The notes under the pieces: generated by a model
What the model was told of the DNA's origin: nothing
Databases searched by the model: none
What the model saw: the letters and a program-made list of their open reading frames with translations, nothing else
Assembly (NCBI GenBank): GCA_019233975.1
Contig: JAFALY010000035.1
Coordinates: 65,819-129,818 of the forward strand
DNA: 64,000 bases
Direction: 5' to 3'
DNA from: Alphaproteobacteria bacterium
GTDB lineage: Bacteria; Pseudomonadota; Alphaproteobacteria; UBA9219
Part shown: one piece after another, positions 2,455 through 18,503 of the stretch
How positions within the stretch are numbered: position 1 is the first letter of the stretch
Layout: every line of letters begins with the position of its first letter
Made by a program: the position numbers and the translations under genes

Positions 2455-3678
2455 ATGCACCTTGTTATTCAACTTAACGAAGCGTCACGCGATGTTATGC
2501 GCGAAATTGTCGCGTCACAGGTTACGAAGCCCCTGCATGCGTTGGATGTCGTGCCGGACGGCGACCTGGAACATCACGGGTTGGACCCGTGGGTGAATTG
2601 GCTGTCTTTCTCGCTGGGGCGCGGGCTGGTCGGCCACCAATGCTACGCGCATGGTTCTGGCGTCGGGTTTAACGGACAATTTATCTGGGACAATGCCCCG
2701 CCAACCACACGGTTTGGTCTGGTAGGGGTTATGAATGTTGGTGCGGATCTGCCACGTGCGCCGGTTGATTTTTTTCTGGGTGACCCATGGACGCCCGATG
2801 CACCCGTTCAACCATCATCACTTCGTTCTTATCGCGATGCCTGGGGCTATCTCGCCAAGCATTATGGCAGCCTGTCGTTGTTGCCAACGGCGCGTGCGCT
2901 TGGATCTATCTTGCAGGCACTTCTGACAACGCGCTGGGGCAGGCGCAGTATGGCGCACGGGGCTGCGATGCTTTGCGCCATCGGACGCGTGCCGATGTCA
3001 GCCCTTGTTTTTGCTTTCTATGACTGGACGCTGGTTGAGATATTCATGGCCCAATGCCGCCGGCATAAAATCGACAGGGGCGTGGTTTTCCTCAACGGCA
3101 TTGCGCATTTCCAGCATAGTTACTGGGATTCTGCGGCGGGTAATAACTTTATCACGCGCACCTACCGCGCGATGATGGTGCGCTTGCTTAAGGGGCTGGA
3201 TGTTCAACGGCTGGACATCCTGAATGGGCTGGAACAACAGCGGTCCGGTCAGGTCTTTGTCTGGCGACAGAAAGATCCGGCCGCCTTCTTCCGGCATTTC
3301 TTTCCCGGCCTGTCGCGGCGCGTTGAACAGGGAATGACAAACGACACGACCCTGATGTTTGATAGCGCCGATGACAAAGCGCGTTTTGACACGGAATTGC
3401 GCCGTTACACTGTGTTACAACAACCCCTGTTGCACATCGAAGACGCGCAGGATGCAAGTGTCAGTGTGCGCGTCCACATAACGCAGGCGGCGTCCAGCGC
3501 ATGGATCCTGCGCGACGGGCAGCCATGGGTTCCATTCGAGGACTGGTTCTATGTCTATCGCGTGCGGACGGGTGAGCATGTGAAGAAATGTTATTGGCTG
3601 TCCACTGAGGCGTACCAGATGACAAACCCCTCGATCGCGGAAGTTGGGCGTTTAATTTTGGGCGTGTCGTCAGTATAG
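2455..3678 (+). CDS. hypothetical protein, 407 aa, no recognisable motif
   Basis: Long ORF with GC3-rich codon usage, co-oriented with and 27 nt upstream of the flippase-like gene. The start is uncertain (alternative ATG at 2497). Confidence 0.45.
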   Translation: MHLVIQLNEASRDVMREIVASQVTKPLHALDVVPDGDLEHHGLDPWVNWLSFSLGRGLVGHQCYAHGSGVGFNGQFIWDNAPPTTRFGLVGVMNVGADLPRAPVDFFLGDPWTPDAPVQPSSLRSYRDAWGYLAKHYGSLSLLPTARALGSILQALLTTRWGRRSMAHGAAMLCAIGRVPMSALVFAFYDWTLVEIFMAQCRRHKIDRGVVFLNGIAHFQHSYWDSAAGNNFITRTYRAMMVRLLKGLDVQRLDILNGLEQQRSGQVFVWRQKDPAAFFRHFFPGLSRRVEQGMTNDTTLMFDSADDKARFDTELRRYTVLQQPLLHIEDAQDASVSVRVHITQAASSAWILRDGQPWVPFEDWFYVYRVRTGEHVKKCYWLSTEAYQMTNPSIAEVGRLILGVSSV

Positions 3679-3704
3679 ATTTCAGGCTTTCAGGAACCCG
3701 CGTT

Positions 3705-4673
3705 ATGACAGATGTCACCTCACCACCGCCTGCAAAGAAACGCCCTTTCGGCAAGTTTTTTCTGATTTTTAAAATCGGCCTGTCGCTGGGGTTGCTGGCT
3801 TATCTGCTGCGCACCATGCCGTTTGCAACCCTGCCATGGGAACGCATGGACCCTGTCTCCATGTTGGTGGCGATGGCGGTTTTGCTGCCGCAACCGTGGC
3901 TGGCGGGGCTACGCTGGGGCATGATTATGCGCGGCATGGGGTTGTCGATCACCTTGCCTGTGGCCATGAAAACTTATTTAGCGGGCATTTTCTTTAATGC
4001 CTTTCTTCCGGCATCTGTCGGCGGTGACGCCGTGCGCGCCTGGTATGCGACGCGACAAGGTTTGCCGGTTCAGCCAGTACTGCAAAGCGTGCTGGCTGAC
4101 AGGTTGATGGCCTTGGTCGCACTGCTGCTCATGATTATCGGCGGGTTGCCGTGGGCGTGGAATCTGGTGCAGGACAGGCATGTTGTGCTGACGCTGGCCT
4201 GTTTGGCTGTGGCGGGGATTGGCGGCCTGATATTCATTGCCTTTGCGGGTTATGGCGCGCGCCAATGGCCGGGGCAGGCATGGGCCAGAATGTTGGGATG
4301 GCTGGCCGGGGCGGTCAGCAGTTTTGCAGGCAAGCCTGCGGTTGCCCTGCGTGGGTTTCCCATCTGCTTTGCCATTCATGTGCAAAGCTGTGTCGCTGTT
4401 ATGTGGATTGCGCGCGCGTTTGGTGCTGATGTGCCGTGGCAGGACGCATTGATCCTTGTGCCGCCGGTTGTGCTGGCGCTTTCCTTGCCGGTGTCGCTCG
4501 GCGGCTGGGGGATGCGCGAAGCCGCCATGGTCGCGGCGTTGGCCAGCATTCATGTGCCGCAAGAGGTCGCGTTTGCAACGGCGCTTTGCTTTGGCATCGT
4601 CTCCGTCCTGACAACGCTGCCGGGGTTGTATTTCTGGCTGACGGCGCGTCATGCGCTGCGCGGCGGGGCTTAA
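3705..4673 (+). CDS. flippase-like integral membrane protein (UPF0104 / lysylphosphatidylglycerol-synthase TM-region family)
   Basis: About 8 predicted TM helices in 322 aa and a 'GGDAVRAWY' segment typical of this family. An AGGAA ribosome-binding site sits upstream of the ATG. The stop overlaps the convergent GT2 gene by 4 nt. Confidence 0.6.
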   Translation: MTDVTSPPPAKKRPFGKFFLIFKIGLSLGLLAYLLRTMPFATLPWERMDPVSMLVAMAVLLPQPWLAGLRWGMIMRGMGLSITLPVAMKTYLAGIFFNAFLPASVGGDAVRAWYATRQGLPVQPVLQSVLADRLMALVALLLMIIGGLPWAWNLVQDRHVVLTLACLAVAGIGGLIFIAFAGYGARQWPGQAWARMLGWLAGAVSSFAGKPAVALRGFPICFAIHVQSCVAVMWIARAFGADVPWQDALILVPPVVLALSLPVSLGGWGMREAAMVAALASIHVPQEVAFATALCFGIVSVLTTLPGLYFWLTARHALRGGA

Positions 4674-5434
4674 CGTTTCGTTGTCGTGTATTGCAGGCAA
4701 CGCAAAGCGGGCTTGAGGATACAGGCCAGCAACAGCGACCGCATCACAAAGCGAAAACCCTGCCATGTCGTCGACCGTATGGCGGATGTATGGTCTTCAT
4801 AAGATACGGTACAGGGAACCTCGCCCTTCTTCAGTCGCAAATAGGTCGACCAGAAAGAGAAATCGAGGTCGAACCCAAACCGGCTTTGGCACAACCAGAC
4901 GATTTTATAGCAGGGAAATACCTTGTAGCATTTGAACCCGGCCAACGGGTCCGTGATGGTTTCCCCCCACAAACGCGTCAGGTATTTCAAAAGAATATTG
5001 CCGTATTTACGGTTCAACGGCATGGTGCCGCGCATGCGTGACGGATCTTTGGAGCCTGCGACAACATCCAGATCCTTTTCCGTACAGAGGGTGATCAGGC
5101 GTGGCACATCGTCAAAACTACGCTGCAGATCGCCCGGGAAAATGCACAGATAGTCGTATTGTTGCAGGCGCGCCTGTTCAAACACATGTTTCACCAACCC
5201 GCCATAACCGCGATTGATGTCCGGTGTCTCGAGCGGGCATAGGCCCTGAAGCGTGTTACGCAATATGTTGGCGCTGTCATCCCGAGAGGCGTCATCGAAA
5301 ACGGTAACGCAAATCTCGTGCGCTGCATCCGCGTGCTGTGCCTCTAAAAAGGTACGTATGCCCGCGCACAGGCGGTCGATTTTCGAAGCGGTATTGTAAA
5401 CCAGAATGGCAACAAGAATGCGGGGTTTTGTCAT
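4670..5434 (-). CDS. family 2 glycosyltransferase, polyprenyl-phosphate sugar synthase-like (DPM1/GtrB/ArnC-type)
   Basis: GT2 N-terminus 'ILVAILVYNTASKIDRL', 'VFDDASRDDS' and a DxD-like 'FPGDLQ'. A soluble GT2 of 254 aa is typical of GtrB/DPM1-like enzymes. Confidence 0.7.
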   Translation of the reverse strand: MTKPRILVAILVYNTASKIDRLCAGIRTFLEAQHADAAHEICVTVFDDASRDDSANILRNTLQGLCPLETPDINRGYGGLVKHVFEQARLQQYDYLCIFPGDLQRSFDDVPRLITLCTEKDLDVVAGSKDPSRMRGTMPLNRKYGNILLKYLTRLWGETITDPLAGFKCYKVFPCYKIVWLCQSRFGFDLDFSFWSTYLRLKKGEVPCTVSYEDHTSAIRSTTWQGFRFVMRSLLLACILKPALRCLQYTTTKR

Positions 5435-5599
5435 GATACCGGCGCGGGTGATGGAGGCCCCACCATACCAAGCCCGTCGGGCTTAGGGAAGCAGCCCTGC
5501 GTCAGAAAAAGTTTGTTATTTGGGGCAAAGCCGCTATCGTGACGGCAGGCCTGCATCGCCGGTTTTGACAAGCGTCATATAGGAAGTGGGAAGCCGCCT

Positions 5600-6562
5600 A
5601 TGCAACAGGGCAACAAAATATTGCGGGACTGGGACAAGGTCGTTCGCTTTCCGGCGGGGCAGGTTGGTGCCGATGCGCGCTATCAGGCAGAGACGGAAGT
5701 GCGCGATTATCTGGCGCGCGTGCCATCCCTTGACTCGCTCGCGCGGCACAAACCGCATTTGCTGCTACCCTCCCTTTACCGCCTGTCCCAAAGCGAAGAG
5801 ATTTTAAAAGGCGTGCGCGACTTTCTGGGCACCGATGCGTTTTTCCTTTGGTATTCTGTGCTGTTCGTTAAACAAAAACAGACCGAAGGGTATATTCCCT
5901 GGCATTATGATGATTATTTCTGGGGCCTGCAGGCTGAAAACGGATGCACGGCCTGGGTTGCGCTGAACGATGTGACGATTGAAAACGGGGCGATGGAATT
6001 TGCGAACGAAGAACCTGACGCGGCTTCCATGTTCGTTCAGTATCAGCAGCAAAACATGCTGGTGCGCGGCAATAACTCGACCTTTGAACCTGCGCCGGAT
6101 GAGGAAATCAAGATCATCGCGTTAAAGGCAGGCGAATATTCCGTGCATTCCAACAAAGCATGGCATCGCAGTGGTCCCAACCGTTCAGCACAGGACAGGC
6201 TGGCGGTCGCTTTTCGTTTTGTGACGGCGGATGCGCAGCCGGAGACGTTTCGCTGGATCAAGCGTGGCGGTGTGCCGCGCGCGGGGCGCGCCCTGCCGCC
6301 TGCTTTTTATGCCGAGCAATGCCCACCACGCGCCCTTTTACCGGGCCAAAGCTGGCAGCAGAAAAAGAGCATGCTAATTGCGGCGTTTCTGACATGCTTT
6401 GGCGACACGCATCGCACTTTCTGGCAGAAACTGGGTGATTTTCTGGCTATGTCCAAGGCAACGCGGTCTTATAAACTTCTGGGCCGTTTGGTTGAAATTA
6501 TGGGGGGCAGGGGTGTCGCATCCGGCGCCAACCGCCCCGTCAAAGACGTCAACAGTGGTTAG
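5600..6562 (+). CDS. phytanoyl-CoA dioxygenase (PhyH) family Fe(II)/2-oxoglutarate-dependent oxygenase
   Basis: 'WHYDDYFW', 'TAWVALNDVTIENGAMEF' and 'HSNKAWHRSGPN' match the PhyH-fold His/Asp/His triad pattern. Confidence 0.6.
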   Translation: MQQGNKILRDWDKVVRFPAGQVGADARYQAETEVRDYLARVPSLDSLARHKPHLLLPSLYRLSQSEEILKGVRDFLGTDAFFLWYSVLFVKQKQTEGYIPWHYDDYFWGLQAENGCTAWVALNDVTIENGAMEFANEEPDAASMFVQYQQQNMLVRGNNSTFEPAPDEEIKIIALKAGEYSVHSNKAWHRSGPNRSAQDRLAVAFRFVTADAQPETFRWIKRGGVPRAGRALPPAFYAEQCPPRALLPGQSWQQKKSMLIAAFLTCFGDTHRTFWQKLGDFLAMSKATRSYKLLGRLVEIMGGRGVASGANRPVKDVNSG

Positions 6563-6565
6563 CAC

Positions 6566-7282
6566 ATGAAAATATTCGTCGTCGGTGGTGGTTCCGGTTT
6601 TGGTTGTACGCTGGTGCGGGCGGCACTGGCTGCCGGTCATCAGGTTGCTTACTCAACCTCGTCTGCCACAGATGCGTTTGACGGTCAGACAGACCTGGCC
6701 GTAACCGGTTGCGACTTGACGCAGTCCGGTCAGGTTGATGTGCTGTCAGACGCCATTCGTGGTTTTGCGCCAGACCGGCTGGTTTTGTGTATGATAAAGA
6801 CGCATTACCGTCCCATGGCAGAGCAGACCGCTACATCGATCGACGAAGAAGTCACCTTTAACGTTGCCGTGCCGATAACGCTTGCGAACGCCTATGCCGC
6901 GTGTCGTCCGGACGGCAGTATGACCTTTATGCTCAGCCATATCTGCTTTTTATACAATCCGGGATTTGCGCTGTATAAGGCGGGTAAGGACGCGCTCGAC
7001 AGTTTCGCCAAATCTCTGCAATTCGAATATCCGCGCTTGAAAGTGCTGCGTGTTTATCCTGGCGCTATGCGCACGGGATTTGTCACGAACACCGGCTATG
7101 CCGGCGCCAAGGTTTTTCCGGCGGCGGAGCCTGCGCTCTGGGCCGCGCGTGTGTTGTCGAGGGACAGCGGTGTAATGATGGCGGTGCGGGATATACCGTT
7201 TCTTATCATGACGCGTCTGTTGCCATTCCGGCTGCAGAAAATCCTGTTCCAAATCATCTTCGGCTTATTGCGGCGGAAATAA
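6566..7282 (+). CDS. short-chain dehydrogenase/reductase (SDR) family protein
   Basis: Rossmann 'VVGGGSGFG' and catalytic 'YKAGK' (YxxxK). The start lies 4 nt after the PhyH stop, so the two are probably co-transcribed. Confidence 0.6.
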   Translation: MKIFVVGGGSGFGCTLVRAALAAGHQVAYSTSSATDAFDGQTDLAVTGCDLTQSGQVDVLSDAIRGFAPDRLVLCMIKTHYRPMAEQTATSIDEEVTFNVAVPITLANAYAACRPDGSMTFMLSHICFLYNPGFALYKAGKDALDSFAKSLQFEYPRLKVLRVYPGAMRTGFVTNTGYAGAKVFPAAEPALWAARVLSRDSGVMMAVRDIPFLIMTRLLPFRLQKILFQIIFGLLRRK

Positions 7283-7284
7283 CA

Positions 7285-9369
7285 ATGAACCTGGCTTTGT
7301 GGCGGACGCAATTGGAACGCTGGCTGGTTCCCGGCTTGCTGGCCGTGTCGGTCGTTGTGTTGCTGGTGGGTGTGTTCGGCCCGTTTGCGCGCATGAACTT
7401 ATGGCTCATCTGGCAGGTGGGGCAGGTGGCCACCATCGGTTTTACCGCTGTGGCGCTTTGCGGATTGTATTACCTTGGTACAGGTAAATTATCACAACCG
7501 GTCCTGTGGGGCTTGGCTGGCGTAACCGGCTTTGGCCTGCTGGCGCTGCTGCTTGGCTGGTTGCCGGTTGTGGCGGCGCTGCTGGTGTTTTTGTGCTGCT
7601 TCAGTGTTGGGCAAATTACCTTTTACCTCACGCGCTGTACGCAGCCTGCGCTGCTGGATGGATTGTGCGTCGGTATCGGTGTGACGATCCTTATCCTGAC
7701 GGCGGGCAGCATTGCGCATATCAATATGCCCTTGTTGTACCGGGTTTTGCTGATCGTACCCGCCCTGTTGGTTCTGCTGGCCCCCGCATTGCAGACAGGA
7801 TGGATGGGCGCAGGACCGCTTGCGACCACACCACACAATACTGCCCCCTTTGTCTATGCCGATTTCATTCTGGGCGTCATGATTGTAGGCGGGTTTCTGT
7901 TTTACGCCGCCAGTAGTGCGTTGCCAGAAGTTTCGTGGGACGGGCAGGTAATGCACCTGCTGGTGCCGAACCAGATTTTGATGCGCGGCCATTGGTCGTT
8001 CGATCAGACACTCTATTCTTTTGCGCCGTGGCCGCTTGGCGCTGACTACCTGTTCGGTATGGCGATGCTGGTTGGTGGCGAGGCGGCCGCGAAATGTTTT
8101 AATCTACTGACTTTTTTTATATTGGTGGCGCAGCTGTACGGTTTTGTAAACCGCCGTTATGGTGCGCAGGCGGCGCTGATGGCGGCGGCATTGCTGGTCA
8201 GTATGCCGTTGGCGCTTGTCGTGACATTTTCCCTTTTCGTTGAAAACATGTTGGCACTGTTGACGCTGACAGCCATGCGTTTGCTGGCTGGCGCTGATGA
8301 ACAGGAACCGCGCACAGCCTTGGTTAGCCTCGCCATCCTGCTGGGTGCGCTGGCTGCCGTTAAAATGCACGGGGCGTTTCTGGATGCGTTTTTTCTTCCG
8401 GCACTGGCGCTGACGCCGTTCTGGAAAAAAGCATCGGCCAAGACATGGCGCATGGTCGCGGTTGTGGCTGTGGTCGCAGCCTTTTTGGGACTTCTGACGT
8501 ATTTTTATGCCTGGGTGAAAACGGGCAATCCGATTTTCATGTTCAAGAATTCGTTCTTTCGTTCGCCTTATTGGGCGCCAACGGACTGGCTCGATACACG
8601 CTGGATGGGCAAGCTTTCGTGGTCGCTGCTGTACGGCATGACGTTCAGAAGCCAGGATTATACCGAGGCCCTGCCCGGCACGATTGGCTTTGGTTTTATT
8701 GCGCTCTTGCTGCCGGGGTTGGCGGCACTGCTGATCCGGCCTGACCGTCGCGACCGCGGGATGTTGATCGTCACCGCGGGCTTTTTAACCTTCATGTTGT
8801 CGCAGACGCAATATATCCGTTACCTTTATGCCGCCGTGCCTGCCCTGATTTTCATCAGTGTTGCCGGTGTGTGTCGTGTGCAGGAAATACCGCGCCTGCG
8901 TTTGCCTGCGATATTGCTGGTGATCGCGCTGGCCGGTTTTGGTTGCTATAAATGGCCGGCAGGTAGCTGGATTGTGCGCAATAATAATTTTGCCGGTATC
9001 TGGAACGCGGAGATCCGTGCGCAGAATATGTTGTCCATATCGCCCGAACGCGTGGCCAATGATGTCATTAATGCGTCGGGTGTGCATGATCCCCGCGTGA
9101 TCTATGGCACGCAACCCTTTGGCGGCAGCCTGAACGGCGCGCCGCTTTATACCGACTGGTATAACTACACGCTGCATAAAGCGTTGGATGAGGCGGTCGA
9201 TGAAACGCAGATTGCCACCATTCTACGTGACGCGCATCCGGATTTTCTGATCACAAACGATAAGTCGAACGAAGCGATTTATCACAAACTGTCCGGCTAT
9301 GCGCGGGCGCATTTTTCCCCCTATGCCACCGTTGGTAATTTGTCAGTATATCGCTTTAGCGGACCCTAA
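7285..9369 (+). CDS. large polytopic membrane protein with a C-terminal soluble domain, GT-C-like (ArnT/PMT-type) glycosyltransferase candidate
   Basis: The 694-aa protein has about 14 hydrophobic helices in the first ~520 aa followed by a ~170-aa hydrophilic domain. The start is 3 nt after the SDR stop. GT-C is proposed from architecture only. Confidence 0.45.
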   Translation: MNLALWRTQLERWLVPGLLAVSVVVLLVGVFGPFARMNLWLIWQVGQVATIGFTAVALCGLYYLGTGKLSQPVLWGLAGVTGFGLLALLLGWLPVVAALLVFLCCFSVGQITFYLTRCTQPALLDGLCVGIGVTILILTAGSIAHINMPLLYRVLLIVPALLVLLAPALQTGWMGAGPLATTPHNTAPFVYADFILGVMIVGGFLFYAASSALPEVSWDGQVMHLLVPNQILMRGHWSFDQTLYSFAPWPLGADYLFGMAMLVGGEAAAKCFNLLTFFILVAQLYGFVNRRYGAQAALMAAALLVSMPLALVVTFSLFVENMLALLTLTAMRLLAGADEQEPRTALVSLAILLGALAAVKMHGAFLDAFFLPALALTPFWKKASAKTWRMVAVVAVVAAFLGLLTYFYAWVKTGNPIFMFKNSFFRSPYWAPTDWLDTRWMGKLSWSLLYGMTFRSQDYTEALPGTIGFGFIALLLPGLAALLIRPDRRDRGMLIVTAGFLTFMLSQTQYIRYLYAAVPALIFISVAGVCRVQEIPRLRLPAILLVIALAGFGCYKWPAGSWIVRNNNFAGIWNAEIRAQNMLSISPERVANDVINASGVHDPRVIYGTQPFGGSLNGAPLYTDWYNYTLHKALDEAVDETQIATILRDAHPDFLITNDKSNEAIYHKLSGYARAHFSPYATVGNLSVYRFSGP

Positions 9370-10205
9370 ACCGTTCGGCGATAAGGCGATACAGGGTAAA
9401 CGCCCAGGACGCGCACATGGTCGGCGTGATGCTTCATGTCGTCCAAGGCGCGGGCGAGCGCGGGCTGTGCGGGGTGTCCTTCAACTTCGCACAGGAACTG
9501 GGTCGCGACAAATTGCCCGCCCAGCATATAGCTTTCCAGTTTGGTCATGTTAATGCCGTTGGTCGCCAGACCGACCATGGCGGAAAACAGCGCGGCAGGC
9601 TTGTTTTTAACGCGGAAAAGGAAGCTGGTCATAATATCGGGCGCATCTGGCGCGGGCCATGCCGGTTCCCGGGCCGCGATATAAAAGCGTGTCGTGTTGT
9701 GCGCTTCGTCTTCGACATTCCGGCGCAAAACGGAAAGCCCGTAAATATCCGCCGCCAGTTCGGACGCGATGGCGGCGTGTGCCTTGTCGTTCATCTCTGC
9801 CACATGTTTGGCGGATAGGGCTGTGTCGCTTTCTGCAACTTCTTGCAGCTTTAATTCAGCAATGACGCGTCTGACCTGCCCCAGCGCGACATCCTGTGAA
9901 TGTGCAAAACGCAGGTCGGCAAGCGTGGCACCGCGCGGGGCCATCAGGCAATGCTCGACACGCTGAAAATGCTCGCCGATAATGTGCAAACCACTGTCCG
10001 GCAACAGTTGATGAATACCGCCAACGCGCCCGTACAGGCTGTTTTCACAGGGCAACAGGCCGTGGTCGACATCGCCGTTTTGCAGCGCGCCGATCAACGC
10101 GTCAAAATTCGGGGTAGGGATACGTTCGGCGTCGGGGAAGGCATGACGAACGGCAAGGTCGGAATAGGAGCCGGGATTACCCTGATAAGCAACGCGTAAG
10201 GACAT
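9366..10205 (-). CDS. pheA: prephenate dehydratase
   Basis: 'VAYQGNPGSYSD' and 'LPCENSLYGRV' PDT motifs with a C-terminal ACT domain. The start was moved to an internal ATG preceded by GGAGGAGAAACC. Confidence 0.85.
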   Translation of the reverse strand: MSLRVAYQGNPGSYSDLAVRHAFPDAERIPTPNFDALIGALQNGDVDHGLLPCENSLYGRVGGIHQLLPDSGLHIIGEHFQRVEHCLMAPRGATLADLRFAHSQDVALGQVRRVIAELKLQEVAESDTALSAKHVAEMNDKAHAAIASELAADIYGLSVLRRNVEDEAHNTTRFYIAAREPAWPAPDAPDIMTSFLFRVKNKPAALFSAMVGLATNGINMTKLESYMLGGQFVATQFLCEVEGHPAQPALARALDDMKHHADHVRVLGVYPVSPYRRTV

Positions 10206-10295
10206 GATGGTTTCTCCTCCATCACTCGTCGCATGAAACGGAAAACTTGGCAATCACTGCTTGGTGTCGCGGCGCGGCGATGATATACAAAACCC

Positions 10296-12923: not shown

Positions 12924-14270
12924 TTGCCGATGTCGCGTAAACTTTTTGGTACCGATGGCATTCGCGGCCTGGCGAACCAGGAGCCGATGACCGCCGAAAC
13001 AGCGTTGGCCGTTGCCATGGCGGCAGGCGGTCAGTTCCGCAGTGGCTCGCATCGTCACCGCGTGGTCATCGGGAAGGATACGCGTCTGTCGGGCTATTTG
13101 CTGGAGCCGGCACTGACAGCGGGCTTTATCGCACAGGGGATGGATGTCATCCTTCTGGGACCGTTGCCCACACCCGCCGTTGCCATGCTGACGCGCAGCC
13201 TGCGCGCGGATCTGGGCGTGATGATCTCTGCCTCGCACAATCCGTATCAGGATAACGGCATCAAACTGTTTGGCCCGAACGGCGGCAAACTTTCGGATGA
13301 TGTCGAAGCGCGTATCGAAGCCGATATGCAAAACGGCACAGGGCAAAACCGCGTGCCGTCCGATGCGTTGGGCCGCGCCAGCCGTCTGGATGACGCGATT
13401 GGCCGTTATGTTGAATATGTCAAAGCGACTTTCCCGGGCAATACGCTTGAAGGGTTGAAGATTGTCGTCGATTGCGCCAACGGTGCGGCATACAAGGTGG
13501 CGCCGACAGTTTTGTGGGAGCTGGGGGCCGAGGTTGTGCCGATTGCGGTCACGCCGGATGGCCGTAACATCAATGACCGTTGTGGCGCCACGCATACGCG
13601 TTTGATGCAGGAAGCGGTTTTGCTGCATCAGGCCGATATCGGTATTGCGCTGGATGGTGATGCCGACCGTTTGATTATCGCCGACGAAAAAGGACAGAAG
13701 GTTGATGGCGACCAGCTGATGGGCCTGATTGCAACGCATATGGCCAAGCGCGGCGCGTTAAAAGGCGGGGCCGTTGTCGCGACCGTTATGTCTAATCTGG
13801 GACTTGAACGCCATTTGCAGGCGCAGGGTTTGCGCCTGATCCGCACACCTGTGGGTGACCGTTATGTGGTCGAAGCGATGCAGGAAAAAGGGTGCAATCT
13901 GGGCGGTGAACAATCCGGCCATATTGTCCTGAGCGATTACAGCACGACAGGCGATGGCTTGATCGCCGCGCTGCAGGTGCTGGCCGTCTTGCGCGAAAGC
14001 GGCAGGAAGGCGAGCGAGCTTTGCGCCGTTTTCAAACCCCTGCCGCAGATCCTCAGCAATGTGCGCGCGCCGGGCGAGATTTTGCAGAAACCCGCCGTAC
14101 AGGCCGCCATTGCCACGGCTGAACAAAGTCTGGGCGACAAAGGGCGTGTGCTGATCCGCAAGTCGGGAACAGAACCGCTTATTCGTGTGATGGCTGAAGG
14201 CGAAGATGCCGACCTCGTTCAACGCGTGGTGGGCGACATCGTCGCCGTTATCACAAAGGAAGCGGCGTAA
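12924..14270 (+). CDS. glmM: phosphoglucosamine mutase
   Basis: 'LFGTDGIRG' and the active-site 'SASHNP' motif are present; the length is 448 aa. Confidence 0.95.
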
Positions 14271-14300: not shown

Positions 14301-15479
14301 ATGGAACTGGGTATGTCCTTGGCTTTGATTATCGCGCTTATCAGTTTTATCGGCTGGGTTTATCTGGCGTTCTTTCATGACGCATTCTGGCAACCGCTGA
14401 CTTTCCCTTTGTCGCCGGAACCCACAACATGGCCCGAGGTTGCGATTATCGTCCCCGCGCGTAATGAGACCGATAGCCTGCCACAAACCCTGCCGTCATG
14501 GCTGGCGCAGGATTACAAAGGTGTCTGGCGCGTCATTCTGGTCGATGACCACAGCACAGACGGCACGGCGGCAACCGCACGCGCTATCGCCAAGCGTCTG
14601 GGTCGCGAAGACAGGTTGGAGGTTATCGCGGCTCCGGACCTGCCGCAGGGCTGGCTGGGTAAGGTGGCTGCGATGCAGGCGGGCGTTGCCGCCAGTCAGT
14701 CGGATTATATCTTGTTCACGGATGCCGATATTCGCCATGCGCCGCACAGCCTGTCGCGTCTGGTTGCGCGTGCTGTTGAAATGAAGCTCGACCTCACCTC
14801 GCAAATGGTGCGGTTGCGTTGCGTCGCGGTTGCTGAAAAATTACTGATCCCGGCTTTTGTTTTTTTCTTTGGCATGCTGTACCCGTTCCGCCGTGCCAAT
14901 GATGCGAACCATGATATGGCCGCCGCCGCAGGCGGGACCATGCTGGTGCGCCGCAAGGCGTTGCAGAATGCAGGCGGCATGGCGGCGTTGCGTAACGCGC
15001 TGATTGATGACTGTACATTGGCGCGGGCGATCAAGTTGGCGGGCGGCGGCGCGGATGAACAGGGTTTGCCGGTCAAGGGGCGTATTGAACTGACATTGGC
15101 CACGGATACGGAATCTCTGCGCCCCTATCCCGATATTGCCGATGTTTGGGACATGGTAGCCCGCACGGCATTTACACAATTGCGTTATTCAACCGCTATG
15201 CTGGCGGGTGCTTTGTGCGGGCTGTCGCTTTTGTTTCTGGTGCCGCCCTTGTTGCCCGTTTTGTCGGATTCTGCGGGTGCTGGGCTGTGGGCCATGGCGG
15301 CTTGGCTTCTGATGGCGCTGATTTATGTGCCTATGGTCATGTTTTATAAACAATCTCCGCTCTGGGCATTGACACTGCCACTGGCGGCGGCGATTTATAT
15401 GGCTGCAACTTTTGACTCGGCTTTGCGCTATTGGCGCGGGCAGGGCGGTTTGTGGAAAGGCCGCGCGCAAGCATCATGA
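14301..15479 (+). CDS. hpnB: hopanoid-associated family 2 glycosyltransferase (HpnB-like)
   Basis: GT2 motifs 'VAIIVPARNE', 'ILVDDHSTDGT' and 'FTDADI', with an N-terminal TM and C-terminal TM segments. Its stop overlaps the hpnC start (ATGA), the same position HpnB occupies in Zymomonas-type hpn clusters. Confidence 0.6.
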   Translation: MELGMSLALIIALISFIGWVYLAFFHDAFWQPLTFPLSPEPTTWPEVAIIVPARNETDSLPQTLPSWLAQDYKGVWRVILVDDHSTDGTAATARAIAKRLGREDRLEVIAAPDLPQGWLGKVAAMQAGVAASQSDYILFTDADIRHAPHSLSRLVARAVEMKLDLTSQMVRLRCVAVAEKLLIPAFVFFFGMLYPFRRANDANHDMAAAAGGTMLVRRKALQNAGGMAALRNALIDDCTLARAIKLAGGGADEQGLPVKGRIELTLATDTESLRPYPDIADVWDMVARTAFTQLRYSTAMLAGALCGLSLLFLVPPLLPVLSDSAGAGLWAMAAWLLMALIYVPMVMFYKQSPLWALTLPLAAAIYMAATFDSALRYWRGQGGLWKGRAQAS

Positions 15480-16342
15480 CCAACAAAGCCATCATTCCCG
15501 CCTCCGAACCCGCGACCGATCAGGCCTTTAACGCGTGGAAAAATCAAAATACAGAAAATTTTCCGGTAGGGTCGTTCCTTATCCGCGCCGCGTTGCGGCC
15601 GCATGTACATGCTTTTTATGCCTTTGCCCGTGCGGCGGATAATATTTCCGATGACCCGCTGATGGACGCGGCCGAGAAAATCCGCCGCCTGAACCAGTTT
15701 GCGCTGACGCTCGGTAACGCCGACTGCACCAAGGTGCCAGAGGCTGCCCTGATGCGCCAAAGTCTGACCGCAACACGGATATCGCCGCGGCATTGCCTTG
15801 ACCTGCTGACGGCCTTTAAGCGCGATGCGACGCAATTGCGCTATCAGAATTGGGATGAGCTGCTGGACTACTGCCGTTATTCGGCGGCGCCTGTCGGACG
15901 TTATGTTCTGGCGTTGCACGGTATTGGCGAGGCGGCTTGGCCTGCGAATGACGCGCTGTGCGCGGCGTTGCAGATCATCAATCATATTCAGGATTGCGCG
16001 GATGATTATCGCGAACTGGACCGCGCCTATATTCCGGAGGATATGCTGTTGATGCGTGGCGCCAATCTGGCCGACCTTTCTGCCGTTAAATGCACGGAAC
16101 CGTTGCGCCTGACATTGCAGGATATGCTCGACCGGCTTAAACCGCTCATGACATTGGCGCACAGCTTCCCGGGACAGATCCGCGATGTGCGTTTAAAACT
16201 GGAAGTTTCGGTGATTGTGGCGTTGGCCGATGACATGATCGCCTGCCTGCGCCGCCGCGATCCGTTGGCTGAGGAAACCAAACTGGGCAAGGGGGCTGTT
16301 ATCTGGGCCGCTTTGCGTGGTGCCGCAGGGGCATGGTTTTAA
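15476..16342 (+). CDS. hpnC: squalene/phytoene-synthase family protein, hydroxysqualene synthase HpnC
   Basis: Squalene/phytoene synthase fold with Asp-rich motifs 'ARAADNISDD' and 'DCADDY'. The HpnC/HpnD assignment is by gene order. The ATG at 15476 overlaps the hpnB stop; the listed ORF begins at 15431. Confidence 0.75.
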   Translation: MTNKAIIPASEPATDQAFNAWKNQNTENFPVGSFLIRAALRPHVHAFYAFARAADNISDDPLMDAAEKIRRLNQFALTLGNADCTKVPEAALMRQSLTATRISPRHCLDLLTAFKRDATQLRYQNWDELLDYCRYSAAPVGRYVLALHGIGEAAWPANDALCAALQIINHIQDCADDYRELDRAYIPEDMLLMRGANLADLSAVKCTEPLRLTLQDMLDRLKPLMTLAHSFPGQIRDVRLKLEVSVIVALADDMIACLRRRDPLAEETKLGKGAVIWAALRGAAGAWF

Positions 16343-17232
16343 TGCAGGACACGCTGACGACTTACGAAGCGGCGATGACGGACGTTAAAAACCGTGTGAA
16401 TGCGGCGCGTTCGTCTTTTCAGGCGGGTATGCAGCTTCTGCCCCGCGACCGTCGTGACGGTATGTATGCATTTTACGCCTTTTGCCGCGTAGTGGATGAT
16501 ATTGCCGATGACAGCCCCACGCCGGAGATTGCCGCCCAAGGTTTGGCCGAATGGCGACAGAAAATTCAGGCACTGTTTCACGGTCGCGCCTGCGACAGCA
16601 TCACAATCGCGCTGTTGCCTGCCGTGCGCCGCTATCATCTGGTTGAGGCTGATTTTCAAGCGATCATTGACGGCATGGAAATGGATTCGATTGCCATCGT
16701 GGCGCCGGATACGCAAACGCTCGACCTCTATTGCGACCGCGTGGCCAGCGCCGTGGGGCGTGTGTCTGTGCGGATGTTTGGCGATAATAGTGATAATGCG
16801 CAGCGCCTTGCCTATCATCTGGGGCGTGCGTTTCAGCTGACCAACATTTTGCGCGACCTTGCTGAAGACGCCGCGCGCGGCAGGTTGTATCTACCCTCCG
16901 AACTTTTGGCCAAACATGGCGTGCAGTCACGCGTGCCGCAGGATGTGTTGCGCGATTCGGCTTTGCAGAATGTTTGCCGTGATCTGGCCGCACTGGCCGC
17001 CACGCATTACAAAGAGGCGGATACCTGTATGCTGCGCAGTATGGCCTTGGGCCACCGGGCGGCCATGCGTCCGCCGCAGATGATGCGCGCCTATTATGGT
17101 GCGATCTTCGACAGGCTCCGCGCCGCCGACTGGAAAGATCCGTCCACGCGCATCTCGCTTTCCGGTATACAAAAGCTGGGGCTCGCGCTGCAGACCTGGG
17201 CGTCACAGCTTTTTATCTCAAAGGCGGCCTGA
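16342..17232 (+). CDS. hpnD: squalene/phytoene-synthase family protein, presqualene diphosphate synthase HpnD
   Basis: Asp-rich 'FCRVVDDIADD' and 'LRDLAEDAARGRLYLP' motifs are present. TAATG start overlap with hpnC; the alternative ATG is at 16333. Confidence 0.75.
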   Translation: MQDTLTTYEAAMTDVKNRVNAARSSFQAGMQLLPRDRRDGMYAFYAFCRVVDDIADDSPTPEIAAQGLAEWRQKIQALFHGRACDSITIALLPAVRRYHLVEADFQAIIDGMEMDSIAIVAPDTQTLDLYCDRVASAVGRVSVRMFGDNSDNAQRLAYHLGRAFQLTNILRDLAEDAARGRLYLPSELLAKHGVQSRVPQDVLRDSALQNVCRDLAALAATHYKEADTCMLRSMALGHRAAMRPPQMMRAYYGAIFDRLRAADWKDPSTRISLSGIQKLGLALQTWASQLFISKAA

Positions 17233-18503
17233 TGGCTCCGCGTCATACACATATTGTCGGTGCCGGTGTTGCGGGCTTGGCGGCGGCGCTGCAATTGGCG
17301 TTGTCGGATGAAAAAGTTACGCTATACGAAGCCGCCCCTTTCGCAGGTGGGCGTTGCCGTTCCTTTTATGACCGTGAATTGGGACACCGTATCGACAACG
17401 GTAATCATCTGGTGCTGTCGGGTAATGTCGCCATTCGCGATTATCTGCACCTCAGCCAGGCGACCGAGACGATGGGCGGCCCCGGCAAGCCACTGTTTCC
17501 TTTTATGGACATGAAAAGTGGCGAACGCTGGAACGTGCATATGAACAAAGGGCCTTTGCCCTTCTGGCTTCTGGATAAAAAACGCCGCGTGCCGGGCGCG
17601 ACATGGCGCGATTATCTGTCAGCCTTCAAGGTCATGACAGCACGGGGTGATGACCGTGTGGGGCAGCGACTGAATCTCGACTCGACCTTCTATAAAAGGT
17701 TTTGGGAACCATTGGTGATCGGCGCTTTGAACACCGAGGCGGAAATTGCTTCCGCCCCCATGCTCGCTACCATTATGGGACAGACTTTTCTGGCGGGCGG
17801 TGAGGCTTGCATTCCCCTGATCCCCAAGGTCGGGCTGTCTGAAACTTTTGTGCAGCCGACCCTGAATGTTTTGCGTCAGGCGGGTGTTGACGTGAAGTAC
17901 AATCAACGCCTGCGTGCCATGGCGGTGGACGGCAATGCTGTGCGTCAACTGGACTTTAACGGCACTGTGGTGGATATCGCACCTGATGATTGGGTTGTTT
18001 TCGCTCTGCCCGCCTGGGTCGTGCAGAACCTGTTGCCGGATGTGCAATTACCCAATGATTTTCGTTCCATCATCAACGCGCATTTCCGCGTGGATGGCGT
18101 GCAGGACCCCGTGGGGTTCGCAGGCGTCGTCAATGGGCTGGCCGAATGGGTTTTCGCGCGCGAAGGCGTGGCCTCTGTCACCATCAGTTGCGCCGAACGC
18201 TACGGCGAATATCCTGTGCGCGACATGGTGCCTTATATCTGGAAAGACGTGGCCCGGCTTTATGACCTGGATCCTGATCGCGTGCCGCCGCATCGCATCT
18301 TTAAGGAAAAATACGCGACCTTTGCCGCGACGCCGGAACAAAATCTGCGTCGTCCCGCCGCTTATGTCGGGTGGAAGAATCTGGCGCTGGCGGGAGAATG
18401 GACGGCGACCGGGCTGCCGACGACGATCGAAAGCGCGATCCGCTCCGGCTTTAAGGCGGCGCAGCTCGTGCTCCGCTGGACAGCAGGCCAGGCTGCCGCC
18501 TGA
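17232..18503 (+). CDS. hpnE: hydroxysqualene dehydroxylase HpnE (FAD-dependent amine-oxidase fold)
   Basis: FAD-binding 'IVGAGVAGLAAA...LYEAAPFAGGRCRS'. The start overlaps the hpnD stop by 1 nt. Confidence 0.8.
   Translation: MAPRHTHIVGAGVAGLAAALQLALSDEKVTLYEAAPFAGGRCRSFYDRELGHRIDNGNHLVLSGNVAIRDYLHLSQATETMGGPGKPLFPFMDMKSGERWNVHMNKGPLPFWLLDKKRRVPGATWRDYLSAFKVMTARGDDRVGQRLNLDSTFYKRFWEPLVIGALNTEAEIASAPMLATIMGQTFLAGGEACIPLIPKVGLSETFVQPTLNVLRQAGVDVKYNQRLRAMAVDGNAVRQLDFNGTVVDIAPDDWVVFALPAWVVQNLLPDVQLPNDFRSIINAHFRVDGVQDPVGFAGVVNGLAEWVFAREGVASVTISCAERYGEYPVRDMVPYIWKDVARLYDLDPDRVPPHRIFKEKYATFAATPEQNLRRPAAYVGWKNLALAGEWTATGLPTTIESAIRSGFKAAQLVLRWTAGQAAA

Follow-up and report, generated by a model that had tools for sequence, protein, structure and literature searches.

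We examined a 64,000-nucleotide (nt) stretch of an Alphaproteobacteria bacterium genome (UBA9219 lineage; assembly GCA_019233975.1, contig JAFALY010000035.1, positions 65,819 to 129,818), hereafter the window, in which all coordinates are counted. We propose that the genes at 2455-9369 encode a three-component system for extracytoplasmic glycosylation in which one step modifies the donor sugar, a statement that, taken as a whole, we consider slightly more probable than its denial. The glycosylation core, composed of a family 2 glycosyltransferase (GT2) and a polytopic transferase of the GT-C type, is a likely assignment. That a PhyH-type Fe(II)/2-oxoglutarate (2OG) oxygenase and a short-chain dehydrogenase/reductase (SDR) carry out redox tailoring specifically at the lipid-linked stage is about evenly balanced. 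The architecture is familiar from three-component periplasmic glycosylation; the tailoring pair, like several of the protein families, appears to be undescribed and very rare.

Organization of the locus

The module consists of the following genes (aa, amino acids):

2455..3678, + strand, orf407, 407 aa, predicted member of the alkaline-phosphatase superfamily
3705..4673, + strand, UPF0104/LPG_synthase_TM membrane protein, 322 aa (Pfam LPG_synthase_TM, E 2.8e-42)
4670..5434, - strand, short GT2, 254 aa (Glycos_transf_2, E 3.6e-6, 27.4 bits, cutoff 23.3)
5600..6562, + strand, PhyH Fe(II)/2OG oxygenase, 320 aa (PhyH, E 1.7e-16)
6566..7282, + strand, classical SDR, 238 aa (adh_short, E 1.4e-13)
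7285..9369, + strand, GT-C protein, 694 aa (PMT_2, E 1.8e-4, 22.2 bits, below the cutoff of 26.1)

An initial annotation, made from the sequence alone, had given exact coordinates for the open reading frames (ORFs) at 3705-4673, 4670-5434, 5600-6562, 6566-7282 and 7285-9369. Its finding began at 2455, which is the start of the 407-aa ORF (2455-3678) that it left undescribed; orf407 is encoded on the same strand as the UPF0104 gene and precedes it by 26 nt. As the annotation had claimed, the UPF0104 gene converges on the GT2 gene, and the two overlap by 4 nt (cTTAA, 4670-4673). It had also described a tight PhyH-SDR-GT-C operon with gaps of 4 and 3 nt; gene order and families stood, whereas the gaps are really 3 nt (PhyH-SDR) and 2 nt (SDR-GT-C), spacings that indicate probable translational coupling of the three genes. 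GC content is even throughout the module region.

The GT2 and GT-C proteins

GT2 had been described as a soluble GtrB/DPM1/ArnC-like enzyme, and the family assignment was borne out by PF00535 and by profile searches. Its only NCBIfam matches were PpgS, ArnC and dolichyl-phosphate (Dol-P)-hexose transferase, at 21.8-25.8 bits against cutoffs of 370-529, and a search of the PDB with the single sequence returned no match. When a profile of seven orthologues (A5) was searched against the PDB, the best match was the Dol-P-Man synthase of P. furiosus (5MLZ, 5e-10), followed at rank 2 by a generic GT2, chondroitin synthase (9e-8); ArnC (6e-6) and GtrB (5EKP, 7e-4) were also matched. In the profile alignment, FPGDLQR of GT2 paired with DADLQHP and DPLAGFK with DPVSGF, and the first Asp of the DxD motif is replaced in GT2. 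These similarities suggest that GT2 is of the polyprenyl-phosphate glycosyltransferase type (Dol-P-Man synthase/ArnC/GtrB-like), with a lipid as its presumed acceptor. The claim of solubility is doubtful. The most hydrophobic stretch of GT2 is a conserved C-terminal segment (227-247) with a Kyte-Doolittle (KD) value of 1.48, just below the threshold of 1.6 set for transmembrane (TM)-level hydrophobicity. The corresponding tails of the orthologues in three compared loci (L008, L010 and L028; compared loci are numbered L001-L028 and relative proteins carry P-numbers) exceed this threshold. GT2 is therefore probably not fully soluble, because the segment reaches TM level in its orthologues.

The AlphaFold 2 model of the 694-aa protein was of high quality (pLDDT 87.6, pTM 0.92) and was compared with the PDB using Foldseek. 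The best match was ArnT (5EZM/5F15; E ~1e-6, target-normalised TM-score 0.60), and further matches included ALG12, STT3/OST, AftA, PglB, ALG9 and Pmt4. All of the top 22 matches (22/22) were GT-C enzymes with a probability of 1.00, and the modelled protein is accordingly assigned a GT-C fold, in agreement with the GT-C-like character proposed in the initial annotation. An ArnT/PMT_2-like core spans residues ~190-596 of the model. It is preceded by ~175 N-terminal residues that form six or seven predicted extra helices and is followed by a small alpha/beta C-terminal domain at ~597-694, after membrane helices that run through residue 596; ~14 hydrophobic segments were found in total. D219 (SWDG), positioned just after helix 191-211, and Y513 are conserved in at least 90% of the family sequences, and H224, K360 and R512 are invariant, as is the pair H224-L225. 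D219 is a candidate equivalent of the catalytic Asp in the first extracytoplasmic loop of ArnT/PMT enzymes, and D219, K360 and R512 are predicted to serve in catalysis and phosphate binding. At 22.2 bits against the PMT_2 (PF13231) gathering cutoff of 26.1, the protein is not a member of this curated family, and an NCBIfam search with it gave no match, the ArnT equivalog included. A search of 5.8 billion clusters yielded just 19 homologues.

Three of these 19 relatives (P0010, P0011 and P0016) are single polypeptides of 1168-1208 aa in which GT2, GtrA and GT-C are fused. By a Rosetta-stone argument, the fusions give indirect support to the view that the family uses polyprenyl-phosphate-sugar donors. 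The three-component logic proposed earlier is further supported by these fusions, alongside a GT2 profile that is nearest to Dol-P-Man synthase and ArnC.

Two other features of the GT-C family were observed. Most of the relatives of 780-850 aa end in an additional domain of ~130 aa (consensus YDD...FTRAxNRG...IDG...DLY), possibly a carbohydrate-binding module, which is missing from the window protein. The nearest outgroup GT-C proteins (29-32% identity) are found in L005 (1-4817) and L006 (3241-6711). Their neighbours are a GMC-type FAD oxidoreductase (~531 aa), an extended SDR (~435 aa, weakly HpnA-like), GtrA and a PpgS-like GT2. Judged by family membership, the GMC protein and the extended SDR represent a second, different pairing of an oxidase and a reductase beside the GT-C family.

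The PhyH and SDR proteins

PhyH matched PF05721 with 61.6 bits (cutoff 22). The iron triad H102-x-D104 and H189 and the 2OG-binding R200 are invariant in its orthologues. As the motif is HxD, in place of the HxA/G of halogenases, PhyH looks like an active oxygenase and not a halogenase. The protein has a clade-specific C-terminal extension of ~70 aa, and the clade is small: an exhaustive profile search of 1.84 billion representatives gave ~10 clusters at E<=1e-38, followed by a sharp drop to generic PhyH proteins, and a word-indexed search gave 13 homologues. The nearest solved relatives by sequence were 6ZYK, an unnamed monooxygenase (2e-14, or 9e-20 with the profile), MysH, EvdO2 and SnoN/SnoK. 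The last three of these tailor sugars. A literature search on the PDB entries 6ZYK/6ZYL found no paper.

The SDR matched PF00106 with 51.2 bits, and GGGSGxG, N99, S124 and Y137-xxx-K141 are invariant in five orthologues. Its C-terminal tail carries a conserved motif, LPFxxQKxxF, and is hydrophobic or amphipathic, with the most hydrophobic window at 218-235. By inspection, the N-termini of PhyH and the SDR are not signal-peptide-like, and the cosubstrates of both enzymes are cytoplasmic.

Conservation of the GT2-PhyH-SDR cassette

PhyH and GT2 were found side by side in 17 loci, which come from Alphaproteobacteria, Verrucomicrobia and SAR11 and from metagenomes of marine and lake origin. At every locus of the PhyH clade with enough flanking sequence, an orthologous GT2 lies beside PhyH (two genes off in L015). 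The conservation of gene order in relatives, which the initial annotation had proposed as a check, was found in L001, where a 55% identical GT-C protein (P0002) accompanies the whole module in the order ABC exporter, UPF0104, GT2(-), PhyH, SDR, GT-C and pheA(-). The identities of these proteins to those of the window were 81, 42, 78, 71, 64, 55 and 83%, respectively; that is, the module genes are more diverged than the housekeeping flanks. In L007, the order is UPF0104, GT2(-), a homologue of orf407, a 620-aa polytopic protein, PhyH and SDR. L008/L009 contain PhyH, SDR, GT2 and DUF2142 within an O-antigen-like locus, and L010/L014 place the cassette in a Verrucomicrobia single-cell genome. Nine metagenome contigs (L019-L027) all show the order GT2, PhyH, SDR as far as the contig reaches. 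GT2, PhyH and SDR are adjacent in L007, L008/L009, L010/L014, L019, L021, L022, L024, L025 and L026. In L016 (from an alphaproteobacterial single-cell genome), L020, L023 and L027, the neighbouring GT2 and PhyH genes run up to the end of the contig. The identities of GT2, PhyH and SDR drop in parallel across loci (78/71/64, 64/60/53, 40/48/29 and 39/44/27%).

In L028 (2593-5133, GCA_041736775.1), PhyH and SDR form a natural fusion protein of 573 aa (P0046). It is immediately followed by an orthologous GT2 (272 aa), and on its upstream side is a polytopic protein of 548 aa that weakly resembles DUF2142. The polytopic neighbours belong to different families: they are PMT_2-like in the window and L001 and elsewhere DUF2142, Wzy_C-like or, in several cases, without a Pfam match. 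Most are mutually undetectable as homologues. We considered whether the partners in the other loci are homologues of the window GT-C protein; no such homology was detectable by BLAST or phmmer.

The conservation of the GT2-PhyH-SDR set across phyla, while the polytopic partner varies, argues that PhyH and the SDR work on the donor made by GT2 rather than on a particular acceptor. The initial annotation had left open whether the pair tailors the sugar or the acceptor; its proposal is thus narrowed to the donor sugar, and the acceptor option is disfavoured. Because the cassette sits in O-antigen or surface-glycan loci elsewhere, a surface glycan or lipopolysaccharide (LPS) is favoured as the most likely acceptor of the finished sugar.

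One locus is arranged differently. L015 (5785-13865), from the Pelagibacteraceae single-amplified genome AG-439-O04, contains GT2, a methyltransferase, an orf407-like gene, PhyH, an asparagine-synthase-like gene and a 400-aa gene.

The UPF0104 protein and orf407

The UPF0104 family call of the initial annotation was confirmed by Pfam over the full length of the protein (LPG_synthase_TM, PF03706, the family of the MprF flippase domain; 145.7 bits against a cutoff of 33.4, residues 21-307 aligning with profile positions 2-302). The protein also matched TIGR00374, 'flippase-like domain', at 6.6e-17 and has ~8 hydrophobic segments. A PDB sequence search with it gave no match, and no paper linking LPG_synthase_TM with a glycosyltransferase was found in the literature. 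Orthologues occupy the equivalent position in L001 (42% identity) and L007 (40%) and are absent from the marine cassette loci. A Pfam scan of the module proteins for GtrA (PF04138) gave no match, UPF0104 being present instead. From its family name and genomic position, the UPF0104 protein is a candidate flippase for the lipid-linked sugar.

orf407 matched neither Pfam nor NCBIfam, and only eight homologues were found in 5.8 billion clusters. Its AlphaFold 2 model (pLDDT 83.8) starts with a beta strand at residue 2, and the N-terminus is not signal-peptide-like. The top Foldseek matches were phosphonoacetate hydrolase (3SZY/1EI6), ENPP6 and the nucleotide pyrophosphatase/phosphodiesterase (NPP) of Xac, with 5EGE, 7N1S and 2GSN also matched; probability was 1.0 and E values reached 1e-7, with TM-scores of only 0.39-0.45. 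On the basis of the model, the product is classed as a cytoplasmic protein of the alkaline-phosphatase superfamily (NPP- or phosphonoacetate-hydrolase-like). The motifs LNE, FLNxIAHFQH, NGL and RTGEH are invariant in the family, and they suggest that Asn may occupy some of the usual Asp metal-ligand positions. A homologue (54% identity) lies within the L007 module, none is present in L001, and another (21% identity, E 2e-15, 449 aa) adjoins PhyH in the SAR11 locus L015. Judging from its recurrence in three cassette loci, we treated orf407 as a facultative accessory of the cassette.

A further homologue of orf407 (29% identity, 427 aa) occurs in L012 (1959-8584, Logan SRR23095627) between an EamA-like membrane protein of 117 aa and a GT2 of 350 aa. 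Next to them is a polytopic protein of 622 aa, and the end of the contig carries a fragment of a phage-type integrase. From its gene content, this arrangement looks like a mobile gtr-like serotype-conversion cassette.

Proposed pathway

We hypothesized that the module proteins would act in the following sequence. First, GT2, acting on the cytoplasmic side of the inner membrane, would load polyprenyl phosphate with a sugar taken from a nucleotide sugar. The PhyH oxygenase would then oxidise one position of the lipid-linked sugar while it is still on the cytoplasmic side; the likeliest chemistry would be a C-H hydroxylation followed by collapse to a keto sugar, the carbon attacked being either a carbinol or an aminated one. 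The membrane-tailed SDR would reduce the ketone with NAD(P)H. The net product would be an epimerised or deaminated sugar (amine to hydroxyl), and a nucleotide-activated route to it would not be needed. Next, the modified lipid-linked sugar would be flipped across the membrane; the UPF0104 protein is the candidate flippase for this step in the three loci of the alphaproteobacterial type. Finally, the ArnT-like GT-C protein would pass the sugar to its acceptor in the periplasm, with a surface glycan or LPS as the most likely recipient, and orf407 may serve as an optional accessory.

A more specific version of this proposal is possible but doubtful. In it, PhyH and the SDR would be a non-homologous functional analogue of DprE1/DprE2 that epimerises (by oxidation and renewed reduction) or oxidatively deaminates a polyprenyl-phosphate-hexose on the cytoplasmic side of the membrane. 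The product would be an O2-dependent donor without a nucleotide-activated counterpart, which interchangeable GT-C-type enzymes would install on the surface glycans of Alphaproteobacteria, SAR11, Verrucomicrobia and other marine bacteria.

Comparison with known systems

The tailoring logic is supported by the precedents of DprE1/DprE2, ORF13 and KanJ/KanK. DprE1/DprE2 (decaprenyl-phosphate-ribose 2'-epimerase) and ORF13 act on polyprenyl-phosphate-pentoses in GT-C pathways (Kelly et al. 2024, PMC11127046). In these systems, an oxidase and an SDR reductase act on a polyprenyl-phosphate sugar to make donors for GT-C enzymes, and the donor cassette includes the epimerase genes. The module resembles these systems in function alone, without homology: it has an Fe(II)/2OG oxygenase as the oxidant in place of the FAD enzyme DprE1, and a Pfam search of the module proteins found no FAD-dependent DprE1-type oxidase. 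In addition, the DprE/ORF13 donor comes from a UbiA-type synthase dependent on phosphoribosyl pyrophosphate, whereas that of the module would come from GT2 and a nucleotide sugar, and the candidate flippase is neither MATE nor SMR, unlike those of the pentofuranose three-component systems. KanJ, a 2OG-dependent non-haem iron dioxygenase, and KanK, an NADPH reductase, together replace a sugar amine by a hydroxyl via a ketone (PMC5533434). The pair thus shares with PhyH and the SDR the two-enzyme logic of oxidising and then reducing a sugar, but its substrate is a soluble aminoglycoside, with no lipid carrier and no GT-C enzyme. KanJ was not among the PDB sequence matches of the PhyH profile at E<=0.01.

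The Gtr system consists of the flippase GtrA, the undecaprenyl-phosphate-glucose synthase GtrB and the transferase GtrC, and the module likewise combines a GT2 of the polyprenyl-phosphate-sugar synthase type, a candidate flippase and a polytopic transferase. Both have conserved donor genes and a highly variable transferase (GtrC in the Gtr system), and one homologue of orf407 lies in an integrase-bearing gtr-like locus. By contrast, the window has no GtrA, and the module GT2 is shorter than GtrB and lacks its two C-terminal TM helices. Gtr clusters are without redox enzymes, whereas the module carries an Fe/2OG oxygenase and an SDR.

The Arn system (ArnC, ArnD, ArnE/F and ArnT) and FlmF2/NaxD/FlmK of Francisella resemble the module in the ArnC-like GT2 and the ArnT-like GT-C protein. 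In both, the lipid-linked sugar is deformylated or deacetylated before it is flipped; ArnD and NaxD act after the lipid carrier has been loaded. The tailoring in the module would be redox chemistry, not hydrolysis, and the module has neither an ArnD/NaxD-type deacetylase nor ArnE/F. Its GT-C protein falls below the PMT_2 cutoff and does not match the ArnT equivalog.

The authors of PMC11127046 state that they are aware of no further epimerase in systems of O-antigen side-chain glycosylation. In our own literature search (phytanoyl-CoA dioxygenase with O-antigen, glycosyltransferase or SDR), no report of a PhyH-type oxygenase in systems of this kind was found.

Alternative explanations

Several observations weigh against the proposed pathway. 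The solved relatives nearest to PhyH act on soluble natural products, and PhyH has no hydrophobic tail, its sequence giving no sign of action at the membrane. GT2 is very divergent, far below all NCBIfam equivalog cutoffs and without a single-sequence match in the PDB. UPF0104 is present in only three cassette loci, and no GtrA is found in the window. GT-C identity is established for few of the partner polytopic proteins, and the SAR11 locus L015 has GT2 and PhyH without an adjacent cassette-type SDR and without a GT-C protein. Finally, the window, L001 and L007 are possibly fairly close relatives, so that shared ancestry could explain part of the synteny.

The first two of these observations bear on the possibility that tailoring by PhyH and the SDR takes place on the nucleotide sugar, in the cytoplasm and prior to lipid loading by GT2, and that an ordinary Gtr/Arn-type pathway follows. 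We judge this to be unlikely. Both enzymes appear to be cytoplasmic, PhyH has no hydrophobic segment, SnoN/SnoK, EvdO2 and MysH act on soluble small molecules, and co-conservation with GT2 fits tailoring before lipid loading equally well. However, redox enzymes of nucleotide sugars are typically extended SDRs, whereas the cassette SDR is short and classical with a conserved hydrophobic C-terminal tail, and GT2 also appears to carry a membrane tail. Moreover, DprE1/E2 and ORF13, whose tailoring genes lie within GT-C donor cassettes, act after lipid loading (PMC11127046).

PhyH and the SDR may instead modify the acceptor or another membrane lipid, such as lipid A acyl chains, an ornithine lipid or the hopanoid side chain, with the glycosylation genes serving a different purpose within one envelope-remodelling locus. 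Hydroxylation of lipids derived from isoprenoids is the classical activity of PhyH enzymes, and hpnB, hpnC, hpnD and hpnE are located 5 kb downstream. Some members of the UPF0104 family are annotated as hopanoid-associated (HpnL), which also counts for this explanation. Against it, the cassette occurs in SAR11, Verrucomicrobia and marine O-antigen-like loci beside GT2 while the transferase varies, which indicates that it tracks the donor. The window UPF0104 protein matched no HpnL model, and five unrelated genes (pheA, a HAD hydrolase, a helix-turn-helix regulator, metK and glmM) lie between the module and the hpn genes. For the same reasons, the assignments of UPF0104 as HpnL and of the module as a part of the hopanoid pathway are not supported. 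A link of the module to the hopanoid cluster is speculative, and modification of the acceptor or another lipid by PhyH and the SDR is less likely still than tailoring of a nucleotide sugar.

It is very improbable that PhyH and the SDR modify the polyprenyl carrier itself, for example by oxidation and reduction of the alpha-isoprene unit to make a dedicated carrier pool. The archetypal PhyH substrate is an isoprenoid chain, and SDRs act on polyprenol in eukaryotic dolichol synthesis, but the locus has no homologue of polyprenol reductase and carrier modification would not need a tight link to a specific GT2. The view that the genes are neighbours only by chance or shared ancestry, with no common pathway, is compatible with uninformative promoter and terminator scans and with the shared flanks of the related window and L001 genomes (ABC 81%, pheA 83% identity), but is strongly disfavoured by the recurrence of GT2-PhyH-SDR adjacency in distant phyla and differing genomic contexts, the PhyH-SDR gene fusion and the 3- and 2-nt gaps.

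Regulatory and flanking regions

The following features were found in the spacer and flanks of the module:

1-1386, ABC exporter, reading frame open from base 1 and cut by the window start
1399-2271, - strand, serB (TIGR00338, above cutoff)
5513..5540, + strand, promoter-like element, TTGTTA-16 nt-TATCGT
9366-10253, - strand, prephenate dehydratase pheA, flank downstream of the GT-C gene
12924-14270, glmM
14301-15479, hpnB, above the NCBIfam cutoff
15431-16342, hpnC, above the NCBIfam cutoff
16333-17232, hpnD, above the NCBIfam cutoff
17232-18503, hpnE, above the NCBIfam cutoff

The divergent GT2 and PhyH genes are separated by a spacer of 165 nt. In the intergenic alignment, the promoter-like element is conserved in L001 as TTGTCA-16-TATCGT, and the element at 5513-5540 is a putative promoter. 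The block around it is the best-conserved part of the spacer (CAGAAAAAGTTTGT.ATTTGG...GCGCTATCGTG). A generic promoter and terminator scan did not list the 5513-5540 element and showed no enrichment over shuffled sequences, and Rfam and tRNA scans of the window gave no matches.

The initial annotation had placed the module next to an MsbA-like exporter and serB. Both genes are present, but 'MsbA-like' fits the exporter only broadly: the full-length orthologue from L001 scored far below the MsbA and MsbA_rel equivalog cutoffs, which speaks against its assignment as MsbA. Adjacency of the ABC exporter to the module is limited to the two closest genomes, and in the window serB and orf407 intervene. 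serB(-) and orf407(+), which sit between the exporter and UPF0104 in the window, are absent in L001, where just 28 nt (3355-3383) separate the UPF0104 gene from the exporter. The hopanoid cluster (hpnBCDE) starts ~5 kb from the GT-C gene, and glmM and the hpn genes together span 3.5-9 kb downstream.

Implications

Three-component periplasmic glycosylation systems drive the diversity of surface antigens, and very few enzymes are known to alter a sugar once it has been loaded onto the lipid, namely ArnD, NaxD, DprE1/E2 and ORF13. The present analysis gives a working context to several orphan families: the rare PhyH clade, the GT-C family of 19 homologues, the alkaline-phosphatase-like family of orf407 and the UPF0104 proteins. 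GT2, PhyH and SDR also form a compact three-gene cassette that is amenable to heterologous expression. If the proposed pathway is correct, the pair of an Fe/2OG oxygenase and an SDR would represent a new chemical route to unusual surface sugars, and the composition of the surface glycan would depend on O2 and 2-oxoglutarate.

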